DNA from: a candidate division WOR-3 bacterium
GTDB lineage: Bacteria; Hydrothermota; Hydrothermia; WGAB01
DNA length: 64,000 nt
Assembly (NCBI GenBank): GCA_027069855.1
Contig: JALXEF010000048.1
Coordinates: forward strand, 504-64,503
Reading direction: 5' to 3'
The translations under genes and the position numbers were made by a program. A model generated the notes under the pieces. It did not search any database. It was not told the DNA's origin and worked only from the letters and a program-made list of their open reading frames with translations. Positions 22,017-62,569 of this stretch are shown here, piece by piece; position 1 is the first letter of the stretch, and every line of letters begins with the position of its first letter.

Positions 22017-24476
22017 ATGAAGCACCGCATCGCCCGCTGGCTCGGCCTGTTGTTGCTCGGAGGGTTCCTTGCGCTGCAGGCCCAGGAACTCTCGCCGGAT
22101 CTCTTGAAGCAGCTTCAGGGAGGCAAAGCCCAGGCCCTTCTGGACTCCCTGCGGCGCTTGCAGCAAGCACCCCCCACGCCCCAGTACCTGCCGCTGGTTC
22201 CCGAAACCGTGCGGGTTCCCCAAAAGCCGGAATACTCCACCATTGAACAGGCCTTCCGAACCGATACCCTGATCCCGGTGTCCCGCGACCTGCAGCAGTT
22301 CGGCTACGACCTGTTTGAACAGGCCTCCGAAATGCTCCAGGCCCTTTCCCAGAGCGAGGTGCTGCCCCCGGTGAGTGGCACCTATCGGCTCGGCCCCGGC
22401 GACCAGATCACCGTGCATGTGTGGGGCAAGATTGACGAGTCGTTCACCTTCACCGTGGATCCGAGTGGCGTCATCGTGCTGCCCAAGGTGGGGCCGGTGA
22501 ATGTGTGGGGCCTGACCTTTGCGGAGGCCACCCGTCTGATCCGCCAGCGCCTGGGCGAGGCCTTCAGCGGCGTGGATTTTTCCGTGTCGCTGAGCGGTCT
22601 TCGGAAGGTGCGCGTGTATGTTGTGGGTGAGGTGGAACGCCCGGGCACCTACACCCTTTCCCCTGTGAGCAATGTGCTGGATCCCCTGATTCTGGCCGGG
22701 GGTGTAAAGAAAACCGGGAGCCTGCGGCGCATCCGGCTTCTTCGGCAGAACGCCGACAGCGCCCGAACCCTGGACCTCTACCGGCTCCTGATCCACGGCA
22801 AACCTCCAAAGGTGTTGCACCTGGAGGACGGCGACATCCTGTTCGTGCCCACCATCGGCCCGGTGGTGGCCGTGGCCGGCGCCGTGCGTCGCCCGGCCAT
22901 CTACGAACTCCGGGGAGCAAGCACGCTGTGGGAGGTGCTGCAGTATGCCGGAGGCCTCTCCTTTCGGTCGGACGCCCACCGGATCCAGATCCAGCGCACC
23001 GAAGACCACCAGCGCCGGGTTGTCACCGAGATCACCCTGCCGGCGCCCCTATCGTCCCGGGAACTCCGGGCCCGTACCCGTCGCGTGCGGGTCCAGGACG
23101 GCGACCTGGTGATCGTGCAGCCCGTGCCCGCCGAGCCGCGCCGGTTTGTGGCTGTGCTGGGCAATGTGTTCCGGCCCGGTGCCTATCCCTGGCACCCGGG
23201 CATGACCCTGCTGGAGGCTCTGCAGGCGGCCGCGGGCTGGAAACCCGGCTCCTATCTGGACCATGTGGAGATCCTGCGGCAGCAGGAGGACGGCTTCCCC
23301 CAGGTGCTGTTCGCCAGCGTCACCCGCGCCCTTCAGGATTCTTCCCAGGACCTTTTGCTCGCCGAATGGGATACCGTGCGGGTGTACGCCATGCAGGATC
23401 TGCGAGCCCCGGACTCCGTGTGGGTGCAGGGAGCCGTGTATCAACCCGGCGCCTACCCCTATCTGCCCAATCTTCGGGCGGCCGACCTGCTGTTTCAGGC
23501 CGGCGGCGCCAAACCCTATGCGGCGCTGGAACATGTGGAGGTGTACCGGATTGATCCTGGAGAGGGCGCCCGCACGGTGGTGCTGAACCTCACCACCGAG
23601 GCCGACCGCCAGTATCCCCTGCGGCCGGGCGACCGGTTGCTGGTCCCCAGGCACCGGGCGTGGCAGCCGGAACAGGAGGTCATCATCACGGGCGAGGTTC
23701 GGTATCCCGGCCACTACCCCTTCGTACCCGGCCAGACCCTGCGCGACCTGATTGAGCGGGCCGGCGGCCCTACGGAACACGCCTATCTCGCCGGCCTGGA
23801 ACTCTATCGGTTTTCCACCGCCCGCCAGTTCCAGGGATTCAGGAAACAAGCGGAGGGTGCTTTGTACGAGGACCTCCTGTGGCAGCAAATGGGGCTCCAG
23901 CAGTCGGAACTCACCAAGGAGGAAAAGGAATTCCAGGAGGCCTATCTCCGCCAGAAACGCCAGGAAATCGTGGCCATGGCGGCCCAGGCTCTACCCGAAA
24001 CCCTGGACACCTACCTCTTGAAACCCCAGGAGGCAGAAACCCTGAAGGTGCACCTGGTGCTCCCCGCAAAGCGCCGACGCGTGGGCTTTTCCATGGTGGA
24101 CACCGCCGGGCTCTCCCTGCCGCTGGAACCCGGCGACTCGGTGCACATCCCCCTCCGCCCCACCACGGTCCAGGTACTGGGGGCCGTGTACTATCCGGGT
24201 GCCTTTGCCTATGTGCCGGGGTATCACCTGGAGGACTACCTGCGGCTGGCCGGCGGCCCGCGGGTGGGCGCCGACCGGAAACACCTCTATGTGGTGAAGG
24301 CTTCGGGAGCGGTGGCCCGGGATCCCCAGGATGTGGAGCCCGGCGACATCGTGTATGTGCCCTGGCGGCCCTACGCCCGCACCCCCATCCGGGTGATCCT
24401 CCGCGACTTTGCGTCCATCGTGTACCAGGCTGCGCTGGCCATCGTGGCCGTGTATTCCATCATGGCCACCCGTTAA
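22017..24476 (+). CDS. Polysaccharide export protein (Wza-like, multi-SLBB-domain periplasmic/outer-membrane protein)
   Basis: 819 aa with a signal peptide. Poly_export-like N-domain (GPGDQITVHVWG) followed by several repeats of the pattern D.V.V.PxxxxVxV.GxVxxPGxYxxxxGxTLxxxLxxAGG. Confidence 0.8.
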   Translation: MKHRIARWLGLLLLGGFLALQAQELSPDLLKQLQGGKAQALLDSLRRLQQAPPTPQYLPLVPETVRVPQKPEYSTIEQAFRTDTLIPVSRDLQQFGYDLFEQASEMLQALSQSEVLPPVSGTYRLGPGDQITVHVWGKIDESFTFTVDPSGVIVLPKVGPVNVWGLTFAEATRLIRQRLGEAFSGVDFSVSLSGLRKVRVYVVGEVERPGTYTLSPVSNVLDPLILAGGVKKTGSLRRIRLLRQNADSARTLDLYRLLIHGKPPKVLHLEDGDILFVPTIGPVVAVAGAVRRPAIYELRGASTLWEVLQYAGGLSFRSDAHRIQIQRTEDHQRRVVTEITLPAPLSSRELRARTRRVRVQDGDLVIVQPVPAEPRRFVAVLGNVFRPGAYPWHPGMTLLEALQAAAGWKPGSYLDHVEILRQQEDGFPQVLFASVTRALQDSSQDLLLAEWDTVRVYAMQDLRAPDSVWVQGAVYQPGAYPYLPNLRAADLLFQAGGAKPYAALEHVEVYRIDPGEGARTVVLNLTTEADRQYPLRPGDRLLVPRHRAWQPEQEVIITGEVRYPGHYPFVPGQTLRDLIERAGGPTEHAYLAGLELYRFSTARQFQGFRKQAEGALYEDLLWQQMGLQQSELTKEEKEFQEAYLRQKRQEIVAMAAQALPETLDTYLLKPQEAETLKVHLVLPAKRRRVGFSMVDTAGLSLPLEPGDSVHIPLRPTTVQVLGAVYYPGAFAYVPGYHLEDYLRLAGGPRVGADRKHLYVVKASGAVARDPQDVEPGDIVYVPWRPYARTPIRVILRDFASIVYQAALAIVAVYSIMATR

Positions 24477-26149
24477 TCGCCGTACACCCGGAGGATCTGG
24501 GTTTCCGGATAGTACTTCTCCACGATCTGGGCGGCACGGTAGCCTTCCCGGGCCATGCCGGCGGCCCCCACCTGACACAAACCCACGCCGTGGCCCGCGC
24601 CTCCACCCCGCAGCAGGATGGTGGTGGGAAGGCCGCCCAGGGACCGGATCAACTCTACCGTAAACAGGGAACTCTTCAGGGGTGGATTGCGTAAAACCCG
24701 GCGGATGCGGTACTGCCCCTCCAGCACCACCTCTCCCCGGGTCCCCACAATCTGAAGTTTGAGGATGCGGCCCGAAACACCCCGTTCCAGGGGCCGAATT
24801 GCGGTAATCTTCCCTACATCCACGCCGGTAAACCGCAGGATCCGACGCCGCACCTCCGCCGGGTCCAGGCGTACCCGCCAGCGGAAGTTGCGCTGCGCCT
24901 CCGGAGTGCGGGCGTTTTCCGGCCGGCCGTAGCACACCTCCGGCGGATGCTCCAGCCAATCGCGCACGGAAATCCTCAGGGGTTCCGAAGCGAACGGCTG
25001 CTCCGGCCCACAGAACACCCCCCGCAGGTACACCCGATCGTGGCCGAATACCTCCTTTGCCGACTCCGTGTGTCCTCCACAGCAGGAGTGGAACAGGGCC
25101 TCAATGGGTCGCCCCTGGTACACCACGATCTTTCCCCGGGTACTCCACACGGCCATGTCGGTTTGGTAGGTGTGGGTTTCCATATCGCCGTAGGCCTGGG
25201 CCGAGTAATCCCCGGGCAGGTCAAAGGGTTCCCAGAAGTTCCGGCCCCGGTCCCAGGCCCACAGGGCATAGGTGCGGGCCACGATGGCCTGGGCCTTGAG
25301 CGCCTCCATAGGATACGAAGGCGACATTTCCCGGGGCACCACGCCCTTCAGGTACTCCTCCAGGGGCAACTCGTTGATCACCAGAAGATTGGAATCGCTG
25401 GCCACCCGAAACTCCAGGATGCCCAAGAGATGCAGGTTCTGGGGCGTGGAGCTCACGAAACGGATCCCCGGGTGCACATTCAACAGCCGAAAGGTATGGT
25501 CCCCCTGCGGGGTAGGAATAAACCGAACCGGACTGGCACATCGCACCAACAGATTCCCCTGGGCGTCCAGTACCTCCAACCAGCCGGTAGCTTCACCCTT
25601 GGGAATCCAGAACACGGGATAGGGTTGCAGCAGGGTATCGCGTCGGATCACCTCCAGGCTGTCAAAGGGCCCCACAAAGAGGGCGTATTCCCGGGCATCC
25701 ACTTTGCCCCTGGGGAACCGAAAGGCTCGGCCCCAGTGTTCCACCCGCAGGGGGTATCCCCGGAGTTCCCAGGAGATCTTAAGGGCCACCGCCGAATCCA
25801 GCGAAAAGGTGGAACCCACCCACGCATAGGGTTCCCATTCGGGCGACAGCCCTTTCAAAAAGCGGATGTGGTAGTTTCCGGAGGCGCCCCGATACAGCAA
25901 CCCACTTCGGCTGAAGATGAAAAAAGAATCCGGTGCGTAAAGATCAAATGAGGAGGCGTAGGCGATGCCCACCCGAATCATGGGGGATTGATAAAATCGG
26001 GCCCTCCCCTGAGGCTTCAGGGCACCCCCTTCGGACTGCCTCCCTGCTGTTGGTGCTGTAGAACACCCGTACCAGACCAGGAGCGTTACGAAGAGAAGCC
26101 CTATGTTTTTCCAGGCGGGGCGTTTTCCCCACCCTGCTGTCTCCCTCAT
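24473..26149 (-). CDS. SpoIID/LytB-domain protein (peptidoglycan amidase enhancer family), lipoprotein
   Basis: 558 aa with lipobox YGCS. The central ...ALKAQAIVARTYAL...HSCCGGHTE...GHGVGLCQVGA stretch is diagnostic of SpoIID/LytB. Confidence 0.8.
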   Translation of the reverse strand: MRETAGWGKRPAWKNIGLLFVTLLVWYGCSTAPTAGRQSEGGALKPQGRARFYQSPMIRVGIAYASSFDLYAPDSFFIFSRSGLLYRGASGNYHIRFLKGLSPEWEPYAWVGSTFSLDSAVALKISWELRGYPLRVEHWGRAFRFPRGKVDAREYALFVGPFDSLEVIRRDTLLQPYPVFWIPKGEATGWLEVLDAQGNLLVRCASPVRFIPTPQGDHTFRLLNVHPGIRFVSSTPQNLHLLGILEFRVASDSNLLVINELPLEEYLKGVVPREMSPSYPMEALKAQAIVARTYALWAWDRGRNFWEPFDLPGDYSAQAYGDMETHTYQTDMAVWSTRGKIVVYQGRPIEALFHSCCGGHTESAKEVFGHDRVYLRGVFCGPEQPFASEPLRISVRDWLEHPPEVCYGRPENARTPEAQRNFRWRVRLDPAEVRRRILRFTGVDVGKITAIRPLERGVSGRILKLQIVGTRGEVVLEGQYRIRRVLRNPPLKSSLFTVELIRSLGGLPTTILLRGGGAGHGVGLCQVGAAGMAREGYRAAQIVEKYYPETQILRVYGD

Positions 26150-30118: not shown

Positions 30119-31026
30119 CGGACCACCACCTCCAGCATTTCATAACTGGGGCTACCCGTCAGGTAATGCGACTGAAACTTCATGGCGCCGGGCTGGAGGG
30201 GCAGGTACTTTTCAAAGTACCGCCGCAGTTCCTCCAGCCGGGGCTGCATGAGGAAGGTTTCTTTGGCATACAGGTGCACTTCCACCTGCTGGGGGTTGTG
30301 TTCCTTGACATGGTTCAAAAGGGCGGTCAGCACCGGCTCCGCCCCTGAGGAAAGCTCACTCCGACGGGGCTCAAACAAAAGCCCCAGGCTCACCCGCATA
30401 CGGTAATCGGTGCCGGTATCCAGGGCAAAGCCCTGTACCTTGAAGGGGGTGCCCACGAAGGACCGACGGGCTCCGTCCTTGGTTTCCACCACCAGGCGGT
30501 AACTATAGGGCTCCCCGGGCAGGATCCACTGCTGGGTGCCAAACCGACCGTCCCAGGTAACCGCATCCGGGGGCCTGCCGGTGCCCTCCAGGGTGGCCAC
30601 CCGCTCGCCCAGGGAGTTCACGATCTCCACCTTCCAGTGGGCGATGTCCTTGCGACGGATTTTGGGCAGGGGAATCCGAACCTGGCTCTGGATCACATCG
30701 CCTTCCACGGGCATCCGGATGTAGGGGCTATGGGACTTCACCGTCTGGTCAATGGCCCGTTCCACCACCTCCACCGACTGCACGGTGATCAGCCGTTCCT
30801 TGGCCTGGATCACGGAGTCCACCGGAGAAAAGGCGTTGGGGGTGATCTTGAGGGGAGGCTTTTTGGCGTCCTCAATCCGCAGTTCGGCCTTGGCCTTTAC
30901 CTCTTCTACACCGAGCTTCTGGTTGCCACCGGCCTGGCCCGTCGTATCCTGGCCCGCAGTATCCTGGGCCGCCAGAACTCCGAACAAGAACAGCAGCGCG
31001 AAAACTCTGGTCATTTTCATGGTCAA
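30115..31026 (-). CDS. Hypothetical secreted protein in the TonB/ExbBD cluster
   Basis: 303 aa with a signal peptide (MTMKMTRVFALLFLFGVLAAQ). The C-terminal ~90 aa are faintly OmpA/Pal-like, but this is weak. ATGA-coupled to tonB. Confidence 0.6.
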   Translation of the reverse strand: MTMKMTRVFALLFLFGVLAAQDTAGQDTTGQAGGNQKLGVEEVKAKAELRIEDAKKPPLKITPNAFSPVDSVIQAKERLITVQSVEVVERAIDQTVKSHSPYIRMPVEGDVIQSQVRIPLPKIRRKDIAHWKVEIVNSLGERVATLEGTGRPPDAVTWDGRFGTQQWILPGEPYSYRLVVETKDGARRSFVGTPFKVQGFALDTGTDYRMRVSLGLLFEPRRSELSSGAEPVLTALLNHVKEHNPQQVEVHLYAKETFLMQPRLEELRRYFEKYLPLQPGAMKFQSHYLTGSPSYEMLEVVVR

Positions 31027-32045
31027 TACTCCAGCACAAAGCGGAACACGATGGTTCCGGATTGTACCTCCTGCACCACATTGGCCGGCAGGGGGTCAAA
31101 GGACCAGCGAAGGGCGGCCCGCTTGGCCGCATTGTCCAGGTCAGGGTAGCCGCTGGACCGCACGATCACCACACTGGAAGGAATCACATTGCCCTGGGGA
31201 TCTACGGAAAGCCGGATCACCACCTCGCCTTCCCAGCCCATCCGCCGGGCGCGTTCGGGATAAATCGGCAGAACCCGCTTCCGAACCCGCTGGGCAATGT
31301 CACCGTGGATTTCCACCTTCGGAGCCTCTGGCTTGACAGCGGATTGCTCCACCGGCGCCGGAATCCTGGGCTTCTCCTTTTTCACCTGGATCTTGGCGGC
31401 CGCGGCCAGGCCCAGGGTTTCCTGCAGGGTGATGACGCCGCCACCTCCTCCGACGCCTCCACCCCCACCGAGGCCGATGCCACCGCCCTCGCCCAGGCCT
31501 CCGCCGCCGCTCTGCAGGTTGATGGTGGGTACCGGGGCCTCCTCCAGAATTTCCTCGGTGGACTTCTGTTTGCCGCTCACCCCGAGCACCACATCCACGG
31601 CCTCGCCCGGCAAACTGGGCTCCAGGTTCTCCACATCAATGGGGGCCTGGGTTTCCGCCAGTTCGGTTACCTTCTGGATGTCAATCTTCTCCACCGGCAC
31701 CTCCTGCTCCGGGATCAGGGCCTTTTTGTTCAGGGCCACCTTGATCTCCGGCTCTTCCAGGAGTTTGGGCTTTTGCACATTCTCCAGATTGATCCGCTTC
31801 TCCTCCAGGGGCTTGTTCTCCGGCCCCTTGGGCTTGGAGCGCTCCACCAATTTGCGGAGTTTGGGGGGCTTCTTGGGGTTCTTCTTGACCTCTTCCTCCA
31901 GGTACTGAATTTCCCGGAGGTTCGGGCGCGACAGCCGCTCGGGCAGCGGGCTGGTGACGAAAAAGCCAAAACTCAGGTGCACCAGCAGGGAAATCACTAG
32001 GCCGATGAGCAGATGGCGTTTTTCAGGAGGCAGATTGCTCCACAT
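31023..32045 (-). CDS. TonB-family energy transducer (TonB/TolA-like) with Gly-rich linker
   Basis: 340 aa. N-terminal TM anchor, a Lys/Pro/Glu-rich region, a Gly run (GGGGLGEGGGIGLGGGGGVGGGGG), then the TonB C-terminal domain (YPERARRMGWEGEVVIRLSVDPQGNV). Confidence 0.8.
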   Translation of the reverse strand: MWSNLPPEKRHLLIGLVISLLVHLSFGFFVTSPLPERLSRPNLREIQYLEEEVKKNPKKPPKLRKLVERSKPKGPENKPLEEKRINLENVQKPKLLEEPEIKVALNKKALIPEQEVPVEKIDIQKVTELAETQAPIDVENLEPSLPGEAVDVVLGVSGKQKSTEEILEEAPVPTINLQSGGGGLGEGGGIGLGGGGGVGGGGGVITLQETLGLAAAAKIQVKKEKPRIPAPVEQSAVKPEAPKVEIHGDIAQRVRKRVLPIYPERARRMGWEGEVVIRLSVDPQGNVIPSSVVIVRSSGYPDLDNAAKRAALRWSFDPLPANVVQEVQSGTIVFRFVLEY

Positions 32046-32563
32046 CAGGGTTGCTTCTCCTTCTCCCGAATGACCGCAAAGGCCACCCTTTGAGACTTGG
32101 CCTTCTTGGCGGCGTCCAGAGCCTTGAGCACGGTGCCGAAGGGCAAACTCTTGTCCGCACGGATGAGCACCAGCTTGGTGTACCAGAAGCTCGTATCCGG
32201 ATCCTGCCGATGGGCCCGCTCAATCACCCGATCCAGGGTGTCAAAGGTCACCTCCTGGTCGTTCACATACACCCGGGAGTCCTTGGTGATGGTCACGGCG
32301 ATGTTCTCTTCCAGTTCGGTTTCAATGCGGGTGGAACGGGGCACATCCACCTGGATCTTGGACTTGGAAAAGAGGTCCCGGGCCATGGCTACCAGCATCA
32401 ACAGGATCAGGAAGGAAACACCGGCCATGGGGAAGAGTTTGCCGCCGATGTCGATTTCCTCTTCGGAAACCATCCGCTCGATGCGGGGGCGGCGAAACCG
32501 AACCCGCCGGCGCTTCTCCGGCTCCTCAGGGGGCTGTTGCTGGACCTTGGGTTCCTCTGCCAT
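32045..32563 (-). CDS. exbD: Biopolymer transport protein ExbD/TolR (first copy, with a charged N-terminal extension)
   Basis: 172 aa. TM helix and the ExbD periplasmic domain (ITKDSRVYVNDQEVTFDTLDRVI...LIRADKSLPFGTVLKALDAAKKA). Confidence 0.8.
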   Translation of the reverse strand: MAEEPKVQQQPPEEPEKRRRVRFRRPRIERMVSEEEIDIGGKLFPMAGVSFLILLMLVAMARDLFSKSKIQVDVPRSTRIETELEENIAVTITKDSRVYVNDQEVTFDTLDRVIERAHRQDPDTSFWYTKLVLIRADKSLPFGTVLKALDAAKKAKSQRVAFAVIREKEKQP

Positions 32564-32565
32564 GG

Positions 32566-32991
32566 CTACGATTCCTTGCGTTTCAGGATCAGCACATCCT
32601 CGGCACCCAGGCTCTTCACCAGGTCAATCATCTTGATGACATCGTCGTAGATCACCTCGTTATCGGCCGAGAGGAGCACATTGCGGCTGATGCTGCGGGC
32701 CAGCAACTGGGGCAAAAGTTCCTTGAGTTGCTCCACGGTCACGGGTTCCTTGTTCAGGAAGATGGTACCGTCAGACCGCAGATAGAGGTTGACCTTGATG
32801 TCCTGTTTTTTGGCCTGCACCTTTTGGGCTGCCTTCCCCTTGGCCACGGCCGCCTTGGACACGAACAGGCCCGACTCGATGAGGAAGGGAATGGCCAGCA
32901 CGAACATCACCAGGAGCGACAGGGAGATGTCCACCATCGGCCCCAGGTTGATGTACGGCGGCTTGAGTTCAGCCCACCGGCGTCTTCTCAT
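32566..32991 (-). CDS. exbD: Biopolymer transport protein ExbD/TolR (second copy)
   Basis: 141 aa. INLGPMVDISLSLLVMFVLA followed by the ExbD periplasmic domain. Confidence 0.85.
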   Translation of the reverse strand: MRRRRWAELKPPYINLGPMVDISLSLLVMFVLAIPFLIESGLFVSKAAVAKGKAAQKVQAKKQDIKVNLYLRSDGTIFLNKEPVTVEQLKELLPQLLARSISRNVLLSADNEVIYDDVIKMIDLVKSLGAEDVLILKRKES

Positions 32992-33620
32992 TTCTTCCGA
33001 ACACCTGCCTTGTAGGAAATGATGAGGAGATCCCGGATCACCGCATCGGTTTTTGCCGAGATCTCCCCGGCCTTCCGGGCAAAGTAGTTATGGGCAATCA
33101 GCGTGGGGATTGCAATAAACAGCCCCACCATGGTGGTCAACAGGGCGATGGAGATCCCATGGCCCACCACCTCCGGTCCCCCCGAGCCGGTGATGGCGAT
33201 CTGGTGGAACGCGTCAATCAGGCCGGTGACCGTACCGTACAGGCCCAGGAGCGGCGACACGGCGGCCACCGTGGCCAGGCCGTTCAGGTACTTGGTGAGC
33301 TTTTCCCGTTCGCGGAGGATCTGGGCGTCCACCAGGCCCATCAACAGGTCCTCGCTCAGATCAAAGTTGTCCACGAACACCCGGAGCACGCGGTGGAACG
33401 GGGTATCTTTGGAGTAGGCCACCTGCCGAAGTCCGTCCAGGTCGCCCTTTTCCATCAGGTGATGGAGGGAATCCACGAGCTTGTCGATGTTGACCCGGTT
33501 CTTGAGGTAGTACCACAGGCGTTCAATGAAGAGCGCGAACCCGATAATGGAGGTGAGGGCCAGCAGCTGCATCTCGTACGAGCTCTTGGTCTTCAGGATG
33601 ATTTCCCTAAAGATCCACAT
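32988..33620 (-). CDS. exbB: MotA/TolQ/ExbB proton-channel protein
   Basis: 210 aa, 3 TM helices, conserved C-terminal region (GLIDAFHQIA...GISIALLTTMVGLFIAIP). Confidence 0.85.
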   Translation of the reverse strand: MWIFREIILKTKSSYEMQLLALTSIIGFALFIERLWYYLKNRVNIDKLVDSLHHLMEKGDLDGLRQVAYSKDTPFHRVLRVFVDNFDLSEDLLMGLVDAQILREREKLTKYLNGLATVAAVSPLLGLYGTVTGLIDAFHQIAITGSGGPEVVGHGISIALLTTMVGLFIAIPTLIAHNYFARKAGEISAKTDAVIRDLLIISYKAGVRKK

Positions 33621-33626
33621 TGCTCT

Positions 33627-36224
33627 TTATCCTCCTTGTCCTTGTTGGCCTTGAGAGGCTCCCGAAAGGGAGCGGATTTTCTGTTCCAGTTGTTGCTTGA
33701 TGGCGGGGTCCGGGGCCAGCTTGTAGGCGTACTGATAAAACTGGATCGCCTGGTCGGCCTGGCCCTTCCTCGCCATCTCGTCGCCGGCCAGTGTGTAGTA
33801 CTGTACGGCCTTCTTCAACTCGCCCAGCTCCTCATAGGCCGAGGCGATAAAGGTAATGGCCTTGTCGCGGAAGGGGCCTTCCTTTTCCGAAAGTGGCTGG
33901 AGCACCGCAATGGCGTCCCGGTACTGCTGGGCTTTGAAGTACGCCAGACCCAGGAAGTAGGCCGCGGTGTCGGCGCCGGGCCGATCGCCGAAGAAGGAGA
34001 GGTACTTCTTCAGAGGCACGATGGCGTCCGGGTACTTCTTCAGTTTGTAAAGGATCTGGCCTGCCACCAGCAGGGCCACCGGGGCCTTGTCGTTCTTGGG
34101 ATGATTCACCGCAAAGGTCAGGAAGGCGTTGGCCGCCTCCTCCTGCTGCCCGGCCTGGAATAGATCCACGGCCCGGGCGTACTCGGCCTCCGCCGCCAGT
34201 TCCGAGGTGGGAAACTTATTCAGGAACTCCTGCAGGGCCTGCGGATCTTCTTCAGAAAGCCGGTAATAGGCGTACTGCATGAGTTCCTTGGCCTGGGAGG
34301 CCAGGTCGCTTTCGGGATACAGGCTCAGGAATTTCTCAAACTCCTCAATGGCCTTGCGGTACTGGTGCAGGTTGTAGTAGTTCTGGGCCAGCATGTACTG
34401 GGCCTGGGCAGCCAGGTGATGCCCGGGGAAGTGCTCCAGCAACCAGGTTAGGAGGGTGTTGGACTTGTCGTACTTGCCGGCCCGACGGTAAATGTCGGCC
34501 GCCCGATAGGCGGCGTCGGCCGCCCGGGGATGATCCGGGTAGGTGGACACCACCTTTTCCCAGGCCACCAGGGCGTCGCCGTAGCTCCGCAGGGCACTGG
34601 CCGCCAGGCCCTGGAAGTACAGGAGATCCGGCAGCACATCGTGGGCCTCGGGGAAGGTTTTGACCACCGCCGCAAAGTCGGCGTAGGCGTCCCGGTACTT
34701 GCCCTCGTTGAACTTGGCCACGCCCATGCCGTAGTAGGCGGCAATGATGAGGTTCGTGTCGCTGGCAGCGGCCCCGAGGGTGGCCATAGCGTTGAGGAGG
34801 GCGATGGCCTCCTCGTTACGGTTCTCGTGGACATAACACCAGCCCAGGCCCACATTGGCCCGGGTGATCAGCAAACGCTCCTGGGCGTTCTGCGAAACCT
34901 GGGTATACAACCCCTCGGCAATGGAGTAGTTGTCCTGGTAGTAGTTGGCTTCGGCGAGCTCCAGGCGGAACCAGTCGCCCCAGCGGCTGGTGGCCCCTTC
35001 AAACTCCGAGCGCATCAGGTTGCCAAAGGTCAGGGCCCGATCCCACTCGCCGTTGCGGGCCATGGCCACCAGGGCCATGGTGACTGCCGGCAGGGAGAAG
35101 GGCGAGTTGGTGTAGCGCTCCACCAGGTCCTGGAACCGGAAGGCGGCGTCCTGATAGTTGCCGGTCTGGAAGGAAATGGCCCCATACACATAGTCGCCGA
35201 TGCCGTTGAGGTCTTCCAGGATAAAGAGCTTCTGCAGTTGCTGGGCCGTCAGGTAGGCCTGGTCCAGGTTCCCCATGCGCAGGAACACCTCGGCCAGGCG
35301 GATGAAGGTGATGGCCGAGATCAGCACATTGTCGGCGTTGGCCCGGGCCATCTGGTAATAGGTCAACGCCTCCTCCGGCTTGTTGAGTTCCAGTTTGATG
35401 TTGCCGGCAAAATAGGCCGCATAGGGGGCAAACTCAAAGTTCTTTCGGTTCAGCAGATCGGTGAAGTTCTCCAGCGCCTTGGTGTAATCCCTCAAGTAGT
35501 AGTAGGCGAGGCCCAGGTAGAGCTGCACATGGTCGCGGAGGGGATAGTTGGCCGGGTGGGTTTCCAGGAAGCTGGTGGCTTCGTTCACCACCCCCTTGTA
35601 GTCGCCGGAGTTGAAAAGGGTTTCAATGAGCCCGTAGATCACCAGAAAGTCCAGCTGGGTGCCCTGGAACTCCGGATAGAGCTCCTTGTAAAGTGCCAGG
35701 GCATCCAGAGGGTGCCCTGTGAGGTTGTAAATGCGGGCGAGCAGCACCTTGGCCAGGGGGTCCTCAATGCCCTGGAGTTTTTCCAGGGCCTCCTCCAGTT
35801 TGTTCATCCGATAATAGAGCAAGCCCTGGCCCAACCGCACCCGGGGCGTGCCCCGGTAATTGGGGTTCTGCTCCAGGGCGAGGAAGGTGGATTCGGCCCG
35901 CTGGAGATCCCCCTTCAACAGGGTAGCAAACCCCAGGAGCAACTGAACTTCAGGCTCCAGGTAGGTTCCCTGTACCCTGGCGAGGAGCTTCGGGGCCTCG
36001 CGGATGACCCGCTCGTAGTTTCCCTGATTGAGTTCACATTCCAGAACTCGGAAAGCCATCTCGTTCCGGTATTCAGGGAGCTTCTTTTCCAGGTTCCGAT
36101 AGATCTTCTCCGCTTCGCCGTACTTTCCCTGCTGGAAGTACGCCTCAGCCTTTTGGAAGTCCGGGCTCCAGTTTCCTCCAACCAAGAGAAAAACAAGGAT
36201 CGGGATCATCGTGCTCATGATCAC
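33627..36224 (-). CDS. Large tetratricopeptide-repeat (TPR) protein, secreted/periplasmic
   Basis: 865 aa. N-terminal hydrophobic segment, then more than 15 TPR-like units (recurring A..Y..G.Y..A...F). First gene upstream of exbB in the same run. Confidence 0.8.
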
Positions 36225-51695: not shown

Positions 51696-52766
51696 ATGAA
51701 GCGGCTTGTTGCAGGACTCGCAGTCATCGGGTTGGTCCTGGTGCTCGGGACCAACTGTAAGAAAACCGAGGAGGAAACTCCCGGTCCCGAGCAAACGCTG
51801 CCGACCTCGCTCCACGGCACCACCTACGGCATGAAGTACTGGTACGAAGTCGCCCAACCGCAGGGGTTCATCCAGTACACCAACATCCCCTACGACTCCC
51901 TGGGCTGCTACCACTGCCACATTGATGTGGAGGAATACGGCTGCAGCCAGTGCCACGAGACCCCGGGCGACAAACCCGCTGCGGACAAGTGCTACGCCTG
52001 CCACGGACGCGAAAAGAAGGAGAGCATGTTCTACAGCGATGTGCACCGCGACGCCGGCCTGGTGTGCGCCGACTGCCATAAGGGCGAGGAGGTCCACGGC
52101 GACGGCAACCACTACAACACCATGTATGTGAGCCCCCACGAGCCTAAGTGTGAGGACTGCCACAACCCCAGCGATCTGCCGCAGCACGCGGAGCACGCCA
52201 TGCACCTGAACAACCTCCACTGCACCGCCTGCCACGCCCAGGCCGTGATCTCCTGCTATAGCTGCCACTTCCAGTCCATGACCCAGTACGGCATCAAACT
52301 CGCCTACGGTGTGCTGAAGGACTGGCTCTTCCTGGCCAACAACCCCGACGGCAAGGTGCAGGCAGCCATCCTGATGCCGCTGGAGTACGGCGAGGGCAAA
52401 ACCTTCATGGCCATCGGCCGGTATGTGCCGCACACCATCACCAAGGAGAACGCGCGGCACTGCTCCGACTGCCACGACAACGCGGCGGCCCACGAATACC
52501 TGGAGACCGGCGAGATCGTGTGCACCTGGTGGAACCCGGATTCCGCCCGCCTGGAGCACCTGACGGGCGTGATCCCCATTCCGCCGGACTACCAGACCGC
52601 GCTGAAGTTCACCTACATGCAGTGCGTGAGCGGCTGCGACGATCCGGAAACCGCCCAGTGGGAACCCATCGAACCGCAAGGGGTGACCAACGCCTGGCAG
52701 ATGCTGGACGAGTCCTGTGAGCCCCTCACCCGTGAGCAGATCGAAAAACTGGCGGAACCCCACTGA
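51696..52766 (+). CDS. Octaheme c-type cytochrome, secreted (possible lipoprotein)
   Basis: 356 aa with RBS AAAGGAGG. Signal peptide MKRLVAGLAVIGLVLVLGTNC, with Cys after an atypical lipobox. Eight CXXCH motifs: CYHCH, CSQCH, CYACH, CADCH, CEDCH, CTACH, CYSCH, CSDCH. Five further Cys in the C-terminal 80 aa. Confidence 0.85.
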   Translation: MKRLVAGLAVIGLVLVLGTNCKKTEEETPGPEQTLPTSLHGTTYGMKYWYEVAQPQGFIQYTNIPYDSLGCYHCHIDVEEYGCSQCHETPGDKPAADKCYACHGREKKESMFYSDVHRDAGLVCADCHKGEEVHGDGNHYNTMYVSPHEPKCEDCHNPSDLPQHAEHAMHLNNLHCTACHAQAVISCYSCHFQSMTQYGIKLAYGVLKDWLFLANNPDGKVQAAILMPLEYGEGKTFMAIGRYVPHTITKENARHCSDCHDNAAAHEYLETGEIVCTWWNPDSARLEHLTGVIPIPPDYQTALKFTYMQCVSGCDDPETAQWEPIEPQGVTNAWQMLDESCEPLTREQIEKLAEPH

Positions 52767-52790
52767 TCCGCCTTTCCGGGCCATAGGCTT

Positions 52791-52820
52791 GCTGCGGGGC
52801 CCTGCATTGGGCCCCGCAGC
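52791..52820 (+). promoter_or_regulatory. Perfect 12-bp GC-rich hairpin (GCTGCGGGGCCC-tgcatt-GGGCCCCGCAGC) between the octaheme cytochrome and beta-barrel genes
   Basis: Read directly from the sequence; followed by CGTTTAAACG and then the RBS AAAGGAGG of the next gene. Candidate partial terminator or mRNA-processing/stability element setting operon stoichiometry. Confidence 0.4.
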
Positions 52821-52848
52821 CGTTTAAACGCTCCAAAGGAGGCTTGTT

Positions 52849-54018
52849 ATGGGCGTTTTGTGGACCGTTCTCCTGGCCTGGACCCTGAACGGGGGGCTGG
52901 GGCTCAGCGTGGTCCCCTATGCGGTGACCGATTCCACCCGCGATGTCTCCGTCGCCCCCTATCTCCGGGTCCAGGCCCTGAATCCTCTGCCCGGCCTTTC
53001 CGTGAACCTGGCGCTCCGGGGGTACCGGGCGGACACCGCCCGGCCGAAGGCCCCGGCCCTGCGGCTGCTCGTGGCCAATATCCACTTCCAGCGCCCCGGT
53101 GTGCCGGTAACCCTTTGTGTGGGCCGCCAGTTCCAGTACCTCGGGCTCGGCGGCCTGGTGGACGGCGCCTCCGTGGGCTTCCGGCTGAACCGCGCCGAAC
53201 TCTCGGCCCTGCTGGGATACCGCGCCCCCTCGGTGTTTGACGATACCACGGGCCTGGAGATCCGGAGCCAGAACCCCCTGTTCGCCGTTCAGGCCCGGAT
53301 GGATCCCCTGGCCCGGCTTCAGGTGTATGCGGGCTACGGCCGCGAAGGCCTTGAGGACACCGTGGTACAGGCCCCCCTGTGGCTCGGATTCCGGTCCTAC
53401 GACCACGCCTGGAACCTGGAAGGGGAACTGGCCTACGACCTGGAATACTCGGTGCTCAGTCGCGGCCGCCTCAGCGCTTCGTACCGGATCCCCCGGGCCC
53501 TGCTTCACTTCCACTACCGGTACCAGGACCCCTGGCGCGATTTTCTGAAACTCACCCTGCCCTCCTGGCTCCGCGACGACCCCGTGAAGTACAGCATCCC
53601 CACCCATCGCCTGGAGGCCTCGGTGCGACTCCAGGATCCCCTGCCCGGCGCCTCCTTCGGCCTCTTTTACGCGTACAACACCGAAACCTCCTATCGCCAC
53701 CTGTGGATGGCCTATCGGCTTCAGCGGCTGTACTTCCGGGTGTGGACCGGCCAGGAATGGGAGGGCACGGCATACGGCGGCCTCCTCACCTATAGCCATC
53801 GCCTGAACCCACAACTTTCTGCCCTGCTCCAGCTTCGCCTGGCCAAAAGCCCCCGCTACGACGGCCTGGTGTACAGCCTCCGCCCCCGCCTGGTGTGGCG
53901 CTTCCCCGGCTCGGGCCTCTCGGTACAGGCCGAGTTCCGCTTCTGGAAACTGCCCGGCGTCCAATGGGAAACCCAGGGCTATCTGGGTCTGCACCTGCCC
54001 TTCAGCAGGAGGTTTTGA
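52849..54018 (+). CDS. Predicted outer-membrane beta-barrel (porin-like) protein of the cytochrome cluster
   Basis: 389 aa. Signal peptide, alternating hydrophobic/polar beta-strand pattern rich in Y/R/L/G throughout, and a C-terminal ...LPFSRRF ending in Phe as in OMP sorting signals. No Cys and no heme motifs. Confidence 0.65.
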   Translation: MGVLWTVLLAWTLNGGLGLSVVPYAVTDSTRDVSVAPYLRVQALNPLPGLSVNLALRGYRADTARPKAPALRLLVANIHFQRPGVPVTLCVGRQFQYLGLGGLVDGASVGFRLNRAELSALLGYRAPSVFDDTTGLEIRSQNPLFAVQARMDPLARLQVYAGYGREGLEDTVVQAPLWLGFRSYDHAWNLEGELAYDLEYSVLSRGRLSASYRIPRALLHFHYRYQDPWRDFLKLTLPSWLRDDPVKYSIPTHRLEASVRLQDPLPGASFGLFYAYNTETSYRHLWMAYRLQRLYFRVWTGQEWEGTAYGGLLTYSHRLNPQLSALLQLRLAKSPRYDGLVYSLRPRLVWRFPGSGLSVQAEFRFWKLPGVQWETQGYLGLHLPFSRRF

Positions 54019-54021
54019 GCC

Positions 54022-54825
54022 ATGCAAGCCCTGCTTTTGCTTCTTGTGACCTGGACCTTTCCGCATCAGTTGCATGTGGTGGAAATGGGCCTGGAGTGCG
54101 CCGCCTGCCACGGCGCTGTGGAAACCAGCACCAAAAGCACCGATATGCTGCTGCCCGACCCCTCGGTGTGCCAGGAGTGCCACGAGAACAGCATGGGGTA
54201 CCAGCAGCCCGCCCAGGCCCCGGTCCTGATCGCCCATTTCCCCCACCAAACCCACCTGAGCCAGGGAGTGTCCTGCACCGTATGCCACGGCGACACGGCC
54301 TACCCCACCCTGCCCCGGATGGCCACCTGTATGACCTGCCACAACGGCGACCAGGCCCCCAACACCTGCACCACCTGCCACGAAGAGCACGATTCCCGGT
54401 TTGCCACCTATCACCCGCCGGCCTGGCTCTCCCTGCACGGCGACTTCGCCCGCACCCAGATCCCCTCGTGCCGGATGTGCCACCCCACCACCCAGGCGCT
54501 GGCCGATCCGTCGCCTTCGCCCTCCTGTGAAACCTGCCACGAGCAGGAGAACCTCAAACTCCAGGTGCACCCCAAAACCTTCCTCTACACCCACGCCGAG
54601 GCCTTCGCCACCCGGCAAATGGACTGCGCCGCCTGCCACCGGAACTACCAGGACTGCCTGTCGTGCCACCAGCAGCAGGCCTCCATTCCGCTGGATCACC
54701 TGAACCCCGGATGGGTGGCGGAGGGGCTCCACGGCACCGAAGCCCGGATCAATCCGGACCGGTGCCTCGTGTGCCACGGCGAACAGCAGAATACCTGTCA
54801 GCGCTGCCACTCCGGGAGACCGTAA
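54022..54825 (+). CDS. Undecaheme c-type cytochrome (c7/c3-polymer-like), secreted
   Basis: 267 aa with a signal peptide. Eleven CXXCH motifs: CAACH, CQECH, CTVCH, CMTCH, CTTCH, CRMCH, CETCH, CAACH, CLSCH, CLVCH, CQRCH. About 24 aa per heme. It starts 4 nt after the barrel gene stop. Confidence 0.85.
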   Translation: MQALLLLLVTWTFPHQLHVVEMGLECAACHGAVETSTKSTDMLLPDPSVCQECHENSMGYQQPAQAPVLIAHFPHQTHLSQGVSCTVCHGDTAYPTLPRMATCMTCHNGDQAPNTCTTCHEEHDSRFATYHPPAWLSLHGDFARTQIPSCRMCHPTTQALADPSPSPSCETCHEQENLKLQVHPKTFLYTHAEAFATRQMDCAACHRNYQDCLSCHQQQASIPLDHLNPGWVAEGLHGTEARINPDRCLVCHGEQQNTCQRCHSGRP

Positions 54826-54846
54826 GCCCGGAGCGGGGTTTTCTTC

Positions 54847-54900
54847 GGCGGGCGGGCCTCGCCGCGGCGAGGCCCGCCCGCCGTTTTGCCGTATATTTTT
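54847..54900 (+). terminator. Rho-independent terminator after the cytochrome cluster
   Basis: Perfect 17-bp GC stem GGCGGGCGGGCCTCGCC / GGCGAGGCCCGCCCGCC followed by GTTTTGCCGTATATTTTT. Confidence 0.75.
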
Positions 54901-61132: not shown

Positions 61133-62569
61133 TTACCCGGACACCCGGCGCACCTCGGTGCCGGGATAGTAATGCGCCAGGATGGCCCGGTAGTCGTAGC
61201 CCTTCTGGGCCATCTTCACCATGCCCACCTGGCACATGCCCACGCCATGGCCCCAGCCGGCCCCGCGGAACACCCATTCCTCGCCCTCGCGCTCCACATA
61301 AAAGAGGGAAGAGGGCAGGTGGCTCGGCGATAGCACCCGGCGGATCTCCAGTTCCGTGAACAGGCGCAGGGTTTGGGCCGTGCCCCGCACCTCCAGCAGG
61401 TACAGCCGGCCCGAGGCACCCCGTTTCAGGGGAACGATGGCCTCCAGGTCGCCCGGATCCCGCCCGGTCTTCTGGCGGATGATCTCGCGAAGCTCCCGCG
61501 AGGAATACCGGATTTCCCAGCGATACAGGGGATCCCCGATGTAGGGAATCTCGTTGGGCTTCAGGTTGCAGAAGGCCTCCGGATGGGCATCGATGAAGGC
61601 GCGGGCCCGTTCCTCGGTGTTCAGCGGAGGCTCAAAGGCCGGGGTGCCGTCGGTGTCGGGCTTGGCCACCAGGTAGGGCAACGGCCGCCCGCCCCACACG
61701 AACTCCTTGGCCTCCAGCACGCCGCCGCAGGTTTTGGCGTACCGGGCATCGGCCACCGTGTTCTCGTAGATCAGCACCTCGCCCCGGGTTTCCTCCACGG
61801 CCTGCCGGGAACTCTCCCGCACCTGCTGCAGTCCCCGGTACACCTGGCAGTGGTCGGTGTTGCACAGGTCAAAGGGCTCTCCGAAGTGGTGTTTCCCGCG
61901 GGTGGCCAGCACTGTGGACCGCGCGGCCACGGTTTGCGCCTTGAGCACCTCCAGGGGAGCGTCCGGGTGCATCTCCGAGGAGTTCACCACCATCAGGTAG
62001 TGCTCCAGGTCGGTTTCGTTGACCACCAGCAGGGCCCGGTCGTCGGCGTACACATCGAACAGGCCGCCGTACACCTCGTCCTCGCGCCGCTCCCAGTGGA
62101 ACCCGGCGCCGTAGGGAATCTCGTGGAAGGTCACCACACCTGCGGCCGGCGTGATCCGAAGCGGCCCCGGCACCTCAAAGGGGCGCTGGTTCCCGGGGGC
62201 CACCTCAATCGTGCCCGAGGATTCCAGGTGCCGCCGCACATAGGCGTGGATCTCCTGTTCCAGGAGCCGCTGTCGGGCTTCCCGGGCCTCCGCTTCGGTG
62301 CCGTAGGTGCGGCAGAGCCAGGTTTCCCGCATGTCCAGGTCGCCCAGCCGGGTCCCGGCCGTTACCGGCTCAAACCCCTCGGGAAGCGCGGGGTTGCCGT
62401 AGGCCTCTACGCACACCCGGTAGGTGACCCGACCCGGGGTTTTCCAGGAAAGCACCAGGTGCTGGCCATCGCACCGGTGCTCGCCCCCCTGCCAGGAGAG
62501 CCGCAGGGGGCCGTCGGAGGACAGGGTCACCGAGGAAAGATCCCGCACGATGGAAATCCGGATTTGCAT
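61133..62569 (-). CDS. SpoIID/LytB-domain protein (second paralog)
   Basis: 478 aa. ...LKAQTVAARSTVL...CGGVLE...GHGVGMCQVG core, as in the gene at 24473-26149. Confidence 0.8.
   Translation of the reverse strand: MQIRISIVRDLSSVTLSSDGPLRLSWQGGEHRCDGQHLVLSWKTPGRVTYRVCVEAYGNPALPEGFEPVTAGTRLGDLDMRETWLCRTYGTEAEAREARQRLLEQEIHAYVRRHLESSGTIEVAPGNQRPFEVPGPLRITPAAGVVTFHEIPYGAGFHWERREDEVYGGLFDVYADDRALLVVNETDLEHYLMVVNSSEMHPDAPLEVLKAQTVAARSTVLATRGKHHFGEPFDLCNTDHCQVYRGLQQVRESSRQAVEETRGEVLIYENTVADARYAKTCGGVLEAKEFVWGGRPLPYLVAKPDTDGTPAFEPPLNTEERARAFIDAHPEAFCNLKPNEIPYIGDPLYRWEIRYSSRELREIIRQKTGRDPGDLEAIVPLKRGASGRLYLLEVRGTAQTLRLFTELEIRRVLSPSHLPSSLFYVEREGEEWVFRGAGWGHGVGMCQVGMVKMAQKGYDYRAILAHYYPGTEVRRVSG

Follow-up and report, generated by a model that had tools for sequence, protein, structure and literature searches.

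Porin-cytochrome conduits allow diderm bacteria to exchange electrons with minerals, electrodes and partner cells, and surveys detect them mostly via models derived from Shewanella and Geobacter proteins. In the 64-kb stretch of DNA analyzed here (contig JALXEF010000048.1 of a candidate division WOR-3 bacterium, positions 504–64,503; the window), three same-strand genes are situated between coaE and panC: the genes for an octahaem and an undecahaem c-type cytochrome, which are the only multihaem genes in the window, and between them a gene for a protein of 389 amino acids (aa). The locus raises the question of what this middle protein does. An earlier reading of the DNA letters (the original prediction) proposed it as a β-barrel and candidate sheath for a cytochrome wire.

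The analysis indicates that the 389-aa protein is probably the insulating sheath of a three-component conduit of the porin-cytochrome (Pcc) type, in the form of a 22-strand, plug-less outer-membrane barrel. This reading is preferred because the predicted 22-strand barrel is always encoded directly before the 11-haem cytochrome gene; the sheath function itself we infer by analogy with known conduits. The features of the locus are as follows.

52849–54018, + strand: barrel gene, 389 aa, predicted 22-strand outer-membrane β-barrel and proposed undecahaem sheath
54022–54825, + strand: 267-aa undecahaem c-type cytochrome, the putative wire inside the barrel
52835–52842, + strand: AAAGGAGG, the ribosome-binding site for the barrel gene, as seen in the DNA itself
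51696–52766, + strand: octahaem c-type cytochrome, 356 aa, with the lipoprotein-type leader MKRLVAGLAVIGLVLVLGTNC followed by KKTEEE; proposed cell-surface electron outlet or inlet
52791–52820, + strand: G+C-rich hairpin of 12 bp in the 82-nucleotide (nt) spacer between the octahaem and barrel genes; candidate partial terminator or mRNA-stabilising element
54846–54883, + strand: likely intrinsic terminator, a 17-bp perfect hairpin followed by GUUUUG, ending the three-gene unit

The barrel gene and its predicted fold

The ribosome-binding site of the barrel gene, which is graded strong, is separated by 6 nt from the ATG, and an in-frame TAA lies 24 nt 5' of this ATG, so that no longer N terminus is possible and the start is fixed. 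Translation gives the 389 residues ending in LPFSRRF that had been reported originally, with both of the peptides quoted at the time, and the GC contents at the three codon positions (GC1/2/3 = 0.69/0.47/0.84) are of the coding type within 64%-GC DNA. A 694-aa antisense open reading frame (ORF; 52726–54810, − strand) overlies the barrel gene and most of the undecahaem gene. It was considered as a real gene and rejected as a high-GC artefact, as it does not carry the GC3 > GC1 > GC2 signature of coding DNA. The alternating dyads rich in Tyr, Arg, Leu and Gly that suggested a barrel in the first place are borne out by the counted composition (Leu 64, Arg 38, Gly 33, Tyr 24) and by the amphipathicity of hydrophobic/polar dyads, which has a z-score of +4.5 relative to the shuffled sequence.

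Two details of the original prediction are revised. The protein was described as Cys-free and in fact contains one Cys, C90, which is non-conserved and is replaced by Arg or Ala in two homologues. The terminal Phe was taken as a signal of outer-membrane proteins; the C-terminal LPFSRRF is present as described, but the conserved aromatic residue is F385 and not F389. F385, at the end of the motif YLGLHLPF, hardly varies within the family, and the tail of four to six residues after it differs between members (SRRF, SRRFGA, KWEAGE, EWRL and others). F389 is found in the closest relatives only, two of which run on with GA or GT. In the predicted structure, the YLGLHLPF-like motif lies within the last strand; the conserved aromatic is followed by the variable tail and hence is not C-terminal.

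The fold is based on an AlphaFold2 (AF2) prediction from an alignment of 15 family sequences, which superseded a run on five close sequences. The shallower run reached a pLDDT (predicted local distance difference test) of 68, with some models down to 33; the deeper run reached a pLDDT of 83.3 and a pTM (predicted template-modelling score) of 0.73, with all five models above 80. The resulting model is a closed, plug-less barrel of 22 strands with a single helical loop at residues 228–248, and the protein is thus predicted with good confidence to be a 22-strand outer-membrane β-barrel. The original prediction had expected about 18–22 strands and had named AlphaFold modelling as a check; the model places the protein at the top of that range. 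Foldseek comparisons return only membrane barrels, at identities of 13% or less. The top matches are the 24-strand ushers FimD and PapC (TM 0.55–0.57, identity ≤10%), and the other neighbours include the 22-strand TonB-dependent proteins FhuE and SusC, as well as chitoporin, Occ porins and AlgE. Because identity does not exceed 13%, these matches describe size class and architecture, not kinship.

The details of the model fit an outer-membrane location. In outer-membrane proteins, long loops face outside and short turns face the periplasm. When sides are assigned assuming a periplasmic N terminus and 22 strands, the three long loops, of 12, 17 and 25 aa, are all placed on the predicted extracellular side and the periplasmic turns measure 2–6 aa. 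Clear in/out alternation is seen in 18 of the 22 strands, with an outward face composed mainly of Leu, Val, Ala, Tyr and Phe, and strand parity assigns 21 Arg versus 10 acidic residues to lumen-facing positions. By simple barrel geometry, the Cα diameter would be ~40 Å for 22 strands and ~47 Å for 26 strands. Pfam searches with Plug and TonB_dep_Rec in the library give no match to indicate a plug domain or TonB box, and nearly the whole of the 389 residues is taken up by the barrel. The barrel polypeptide has no CxxCH motif and so differs from the fused porin-cytochromes of the Cyc2 type.

The longest predicted extracellular loop (residues 227–251; 53527–53601) takes a helical form in the window protein. 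Several homologues (P0007, P0008 and P0012) have a poly-Glu stretch in its place, such as EEEEEENEEHEEEEG, which is possibly a cation- or mineral-binding feature.

It is highly improbable that the gene product is instead a soluble or periplasmic β-rich protein, or that the ORF is an artefact of high-GC DNA. The very short, uncharged leader, the weak result of the shallow AF2 run and the capacity of high-GC DNA to give rise to long spurious ORFs, of which the antisense ORF is an example, could be read in that way. Such a reading is opposed by the coding-type GC3, the ribosome-binding site and the conservation of the protein, at 66–98% identity across assemblies and down to 20–35% in other lineages, and equally by the closed barrel and the uniformly higher scores of the deeper AF2 run, the restriction of structural matches to membrane barrels and the hydrophobic character of the outward positions.

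The undecahaem partner and the proposed wire

Relatives of the barrel were collected by several routes. Among 1.84 billion cluster representatives, searched exhaustively with HMMER, there were 10 matches, five of them at E ≤ 1e-30, which marks the family as rare. A word-index homology search gave four close relatives, to which a wider alignment added two, and a scan of a genome collection with the close alignment found two loci. The degenerate pattern GRQFxY...GG..DG matched only a JGI contig that was already known, and a metagenome scan with the subfamily alignment gave no match. The related loci comprise the window (W), L001–L011 and L020, with GC contents of 31–67%; members of the low-GC clade are labelled "candidate division WOR-3" and "Candidatus Hydrothermales" at NCBI.

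In every related locus, the barrel gene is followed by a gene for an alignable cytochrome of 264–290 aa, with a gap of 1–4 nt or an ATGA overlap. Where counted, the partner cytochromes have 11–12 haems with invariant haem motifs (the 272-aa partner in L020 is left uncounted). The original prediction had named the absence of the barrel from orthologous cytochrome clusters as its own test, and the barrel is present in every cluster examined. Over 21 pairs, barrel identity and cytochrome identity are correlated with r = 0.99, which shows co-inheritance of barrel and cytochrome and not by itself contact. A multihaem cytochrome is also encoded upstream of the barrel wherever the contig reaches far enough, either a lipoprotein with six to eight haems or, in L008, an 18-haem protein that has no lipobox. 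Because the upstream cytochrome varies in this manner and is set apart by a hairpin, the conserved core of the locus is the barrel–undecahaem pair. In L020 (1314–2477), two ORFs of 159 and 217 aa stand in place of a single barrel gene, followed by the intact cytochrome gene; this looks like a frameshift, a pseudogene or an assembly error, and the fragments P0010 and P0011 look similar.

The undecahaem cytochrome of the window contains 11 CxxCH motifs, in agreement with the count given originally for the adjacent 267-aa protein, at ~24 residues per haem, and has a net charge of −12 before haem propionates. Its 23 His residues are enough for bis-His ligation of all 11 haems. The Pfam matches are to cytochrome c3/c7 and to domain II/IV of MtrC/MtrF (E 6e-11), and no match is obtained to the NCBIfam model of the DmsE/MtrA-family decahaem cytochromes, TIGR03508. 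The start codon lies 3 nt beyond the barrel stop codon and shares its frame (TGA GCC ATG, 54016–54024), as is also the case in L001 and L003. A programmed read-through fusing barrel and cytochrome was considered and rejected, as the other loci have a frame-shifted ATGA overlap or other spacings.

Both members of the pair have unusual leaders. The barrel leader, MGVLWTVLLA followed by WTLNGG (52849–52881), and the undecahaem leader, MQALLLLLVTWT followed by FPHQLH (54022–54057), each comprise ~10–12 hydrophobic residues and no charged residue. No longer start is possible for either gene, and short uncharged leaders hold across the close family. Distant Calditrichae homologues have ordinary signal peptides of 21–31 residues, and the cleavage region of these aligns to approximately residue 10–11 of the window barrel, which supports strand 1 (residues 12–26) of the barrel as real. 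The truncated leaders could reflect a non-standard route of export or assembly, such as coupled insertion of cytochrome and barrel.

In the proposed mechanism, barrel and undecahaem would be made together from translationally coupled genes, and the acidic, haem-dense undecahaem would enter the Arg-rich lumen of the barrel from the periplasmic side. Given a linear arrangement like that of MtrA, its haems would extend over ~90 Å, crossing the ~40-Å outer membrane and reaching into the periplasm. At the outer mouth of the barrel, the undecahaem would meet the octahaem lipoprotein, which would exchange electrons with an extracellular acceptor or donor. Cytochrome insertion, the surface location of the octahaem protein, the direction in which electrons flow, the nature of the substrate, and the partner at the inner membrane are all putative elements of this scheme. 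In MtrAB, ten haems are arranged over 80 Å, the membrane measures ~40 Å and the first four of the 26 strands of MtrB stand off MtrA (PMC7198977). For this reason, a sheath of 22 strands is plausible, and the undecahaem protein, with 11 haems in ~255 mature residues, is plausibly a leaner wire than MtrA that fits within 22 strands. Calculated net charges are +7 to +18 for the family barrels and −21 to −41 for the cytochromes, haem propionates included.

Several points weigh against this scheme. The insertion of the undecahaem into the barrel is argued by analogy with MtrAB. The charge complementarity suggested by the model derives from strand parity, not coordinates; it does not hold for the L007 cytochrome, whose charge is +3 when propionates are left aside, and the distant barrels have a net charge close to zero. 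The ~10 family sequences are too few for an analysis of residue co-evolution between barrel and cytochrome. Short uncharged leaders are unusual in Sec export, a route on which barrel and undecahaem would both depend. Lastly, the 64-kb window contains neither an inner-membrane quinol dehydrogenase nor a further cytochrome, the neighbours being the housekeeping genes coaE and panC. In relatives, quinol-linked modules do lie beside the conduit, namely cytochrome b/multihaem fusions in L008 and a Rieske protein with cytochrome b in two more distant loci, L018 and L019.

A plug-less barrel with mostly short loops might also be a diffusion channel, with a lumen free of cytochrome and a soluble or colloidal substrate such as a chelated metal, selenite or tellurite, or polysulfide that is reduced in the periplasm by both cytochromes. 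The presence of chitoporin, Occ porins and AlgE among the structural neighbours is consistent with this possibility, as are NCBIfam matches of the octahaem protein to ExtM, ExtN and ExtO of a selenite/tellurite-reduction operon, although these are weak and far sub-threshold, at 25–31 bits against cut-offs of 200–800, and reflect haem motifs only. An empty lumen of ~40 Å (Cα) would constitute an unregulated hole, and the known barrels of 22–24 strands hold a plug or a passenger protein; moreover, the translational coupling is universal and specific to a haem-dense, 11–12-haem wire protein. A plain substrate channel is unlikely, then, because the lumen is wide and plug-less and the coupling is specific to a wire-like cytochrome.

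The octahaem gene, RNA elements and genomic surroundings

The 356-aa octahaem protein contains eight CxxCH motifs, 23 His and 21 Cys, and its lipoprotein-type leader ends in LGTNC, from which we infer a surface location. Its Pfam matches are to cytochrome c3/c7 only, weak and sub-threshold, and it scores 16.7 bits against TIGR03508, for which the cut-off is 192. The protein is conserved at 92–96% identity in the close loci and has lipoprotein multihaem equivalents in the distant loci.

The spacer between the octahaem and barrel genes has a folding energy of −44.4 kcal/mol (z = −4.1). Its hairpin is kept with loop changes in L003 (9918–10000), L011 (5919–6000) and L006, and a hairpin with a T-run occupies the spacer of the low-GC loci L010 (1329–1397), L007 (1016–1064) and L020 (1234–1313). 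This pattern points to partial termination, or to processing of the mRNA, by which the surface cytochrome is expressed independently of the barrel–undecahaem pair. The 80-nt stretch 3' of the undecahaem gene has a folding energy of −54 kcal/mol (z = −4.7); its hairpin was missed by a consensus terminator scan because the T-run is short. A scan for sigma-70 promoters gave no match, and the window contains no rRNA or other Rfam match.

The arrangement of the upstream gene bears on a further reading, in which the barrel is a translocon or assembly factor, similar to Slam or an usher, that brings the upstream lipoprotein cytochrome to the surface and forms no permanent sheath. The best Foldseek matches are ushers, which pass folded proteins, and the upstream cytochrome has a lipoprotein leader with acidic and basic residues after the lipidated Cys. 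The usher match is generic, however (identity ≤10%, TM ≤ 0.57), the upstream gene is set apart by the terminator-like hairpin, and in L008 its place is taken by a different protein, with 18 haems and no lipobox. Because conservation and translational coupling tie the barrel to the downstream cytochrome, a translocon function is very unlikely, and the sheath of the undecahaem remains the preferred assignment.

Diderm machinery is also encoded in the window, in the form of a Wza-like exporter and of three proteins whose genes share the − strand at 31023–36224 with other ORFs in between: an 865-aa TPR protein that is BamD/YfiO-like over part of its length, ExbB, and a TonB protein recognised by its C-terminal domain. 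These three point to an outer membrane in the host. In this otherwise diderm-looking organism, a 558-aa protein with a SpoIID Pfam domain is encoded at 24473–26149 (− strand), and a 478-aa protein at 61133–62569 (− strand) is SpoIID-like by reading of its translation. A 572-aa ORF at 11288–13006 (+ strand) has a coding-type GC signature and no Pfam match at E ≤ 1e-5.

Among the related loci, the WOR-3-type L008 (217–5535 and 7971–10142) has two cytochrome b genes and 9- and 18-haem cytochromes beside the barrel module. Also beside the module, a 723-aa fusion combines 16 CxxCH motifs with a Ni_hydr_CYTB domain. The cytochrome b/multihaem fusions of L008 presumably resemble CbcL, a Geobacter quinol oxidase in metal reduction. 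Together, the L008 genes would form a complete candidate pathway from the inner membrane to the surface. The 12-haem cytochrome of L008 is followed by an 83-aa dihaem lipoprotein, and a similar one of 86 aa is found in L010.

Kinship and relation to known conduits

The barrel, 11 family members and the distant barrels described below have no match in Pfam or NCBIfam at E ≤ 1, and the family profile matches no PDB chain at E ≤ 10, MtrB (6R2Q_B) included. Pfam and NCBIfam include the MtrB/PioB models PF11854 and TIGR03509, and the 11 members tested at the same threshold give no MtrB/PioB-type match, which separates them from MtrB, MtoB and PioB. The original prediction could assign no homology from sequence alone, and in the profile searches the barrel is likewise unrelated in sequence to MtrB.

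More distant kinship is reached through the cytochrome. A cytochrome profile search identified 1077 relatives, for four of which the genomic context was read, namely those in Calditrichae (L014), Ignavibacteriaceae (L016) and unclassified bacteria (L018 and L019). In all four, the cytochrome (P0041, P0028, P0054 and P0130; profile E 1e-27 to 1e-49) is encoded directly after a barrel of 396–423 aa that has no Pfam match, and more multihaem cytochromes flank the pair. The cytochromes of the distant clusters are clear homologues of the window type (E 1e-27 to 1e-51). The motif GRQ(F/W)...DG is common to the window family and the distant barrels. An hhalign comparison of the two alignments gives a probability of 98.7%, an E value of 2.3e-16 and a score of 124 over 351 collinear columns; by comparison, reversed alignments score ~15 and 20 block shuffles score at most 42. 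Against single sequences, the probability is 96.7% for L014 and 72% over 172 columns for L016. HMMER alone finds no link between the window barrels and those of Calditrichia and Ignavibacteriaceae. By profile–profile alignment, then, the window barrel is a remote full-length homologue of the cytochrome-cluster barrels of Calditrichia and Ignavibacteriaceae. The suggestion that it may represent a new porin family holds insofar as no curated model covers it, but not insofar as these homologues exist.

The L016 cluster encodes a tetrahaem cytochrome, a 423-aa barrel, a 404-aa cytochrome with 14 haems and a lipoprotein cytochrome whose haem motif is atypical. It agrees with what has been published on the Ignavibacterium album pcc cluster IALB_1837–1840, whose periplasmic cytochrome is 400 residues long and binds 14 haems (PMC4245776), a correspondence drawn from that description. 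As in the I. album-type and Calditrichia clusters, the core pair of the window locus is a barrel followed by a tightly placed multihaem cytochrome; across these clusters, further multihaem cytochromes, some of them lipoproteins, flank the pair. The differences lie in the partner, the barrel and the leaders. In the window, the partner carries its 11 haems on 267 aa, as opposed to 14 haems in 400–404 aa in the Ignavibacteriaceae type, and the window pair is for this reason a different, more compact branch. The window barrel is 389 aa long and net basic, whereas the distant barrels have 396–423 aa and are near neutral, and the window leaders of ~10–12 aa compare with ordinary leaders of 21–31 aa in the distant homologues. 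In the clusters of L018 (7414–10300) and L019 (7693–9260), genes for a Rieske protein and cytochrome b lie directly downstream; L018 also has another multihaem cytochrome there, and a sigma-54 activator lies upstream.

The Pcc class is described as a porin of 18–22 strands, a periplasmic cytochrome with 5–14 haems and, usually, an outer-membrane cytochrome (PMC4245776; PMC4282303). The window barrel has 22 predicted strands; the associated cytochrome gene, 3 nt downstream, encodes 11 haems, with the same pairing in all related loci; and the cluster includes the 8-haem cytochrome with a lipoprotein-type leader, which would place it at the surface. Because every feature of the class that can be tested from sequence is present, the barrel is a divergent member of the known Pcc class and not a categorically new porin, its likeness to the Geobacter porins being one of architecture. 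By analogy, the barrel–cytochrome complex would carry electrons from one side of the outer membrane to the other. The original prediction had stressed that the barrel is smaller than MtrB, with its ~26 strands; with 22 strands this is so, but a small barrel is already the norm among Pcc porins (PMC4245776).

OmbB-OmaB-OmcB of Geobacter sulfurreducens likewise combines a porin-like barrel with two multihaem cytochromes, one periplasmic and the other an outer-membrane lipoprotein, and all three are encoded together. The gene order differs, as the lipoprotein cytochrome comes first in the window and last in ombB-omaB-omcB, and the periplasmic and surface cytochromes have 11 and 8 haems here versus 8 and 12 in Geobacter. 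No Pfam or NCBIfam match to a Geobacter-type porin is found at E ≤ 1, in libraries that may not hold OmbB, ExtB, ExtE or ExtI models. With Shewanella MtrCAB and with MtoAB and PioAB, the window system would share the principle of a multihaem wire that is insulated by a barrel and docks to a cytochrome at the surface (PMC7198977). The MtrB barrel is built of 26 strands and pairs with a decahaem (PMC7198977), whereas the window barrel has 22 predicted strands and an 11-haem partner. PCC3 and PCC4 of Fe(II)-oxidising Proteobacteria are clusters of porin and multihaem genes that were likewise proposed from architecture, without homology to Mtr or Omb proteins (PMC5566968). The PCC3 cytochromes have medians of 34 and 21 haems and are accompanied by a conserved five-helix inner-membrane protein (PMC5566968), neither of which occurs in the window. 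TonB-dependent transporters such as FhuE and SusC and ushers such as FimD and PapC are of the same size class, with a wide lumen that is filled by a folded domain. In contrast, the window barrel is plug-less, has no receptor or usher match in Pfam, and is 6–12% identical to these proteins; at 389 aa it is too short for a plug.

These comparisons also bear on the direction of electron flow. A possible, though doubtful, alternative is that the same conduit is run inward, as in MtoAB and PioAB, so that extracellular Fe(II), a mineral or another cell supplies electrons to the periplasm and no respiratory electrons are exported. Porin-cytochrome modules serve both directions (PMC4245776; PMC5566968), the window holds no feature that fixes the direction, and the Rieske/cytochrome b genes of L018 and L019 would fit uphill or downhill routing from an external donor. 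MtoAB, PioAB and PCC4, however, often occur without an extracellular cytochrome (PMC4245776; PMC5566968). The window has one, the octahaem protein, in which it differs from PCC4 (PMC5566968). The cytochrome b/multihaem fusions beside the module in L008, if CbcL-like, would also speak against inward flow.

An open-access literature search, as a weak negative, returned no description of this barrel family or of extracellular electron transfer in WOR-3. One could speculate, with considerable doubt, that the minimal self-contained wire formed by the 22-strand barrel and an 11-haem cytochrome of ~250 residues, with leaders of ~10–12 residues, is a distinct compact branch of conduits, in lineages (WOR-3/Hydrothermales and the 64%-GC lineage of the window) that the searched literature does not link to extracellular electron transfer. 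With 389 and 267 residues and 11 haems, the pair would be among the more compact candidate trans-membrane wires, and this compactness recommends it in practice for structural studies or for expression in a heterologous host. Annotation and surveys based on hidden Markov models are expected to miss this group of barrels because no Pfam or NCBIfam model matches it. The concept of the conduit is unchanged, and a known kind of system is extended by a compact branch within a superfamily of FCB-group barrels that no curated model covers; with a profile derived from the present alignments, surveys could reveal candidate electron-transfer capacity in WOR-3/Hydrothermales and in related uncultured lineages.

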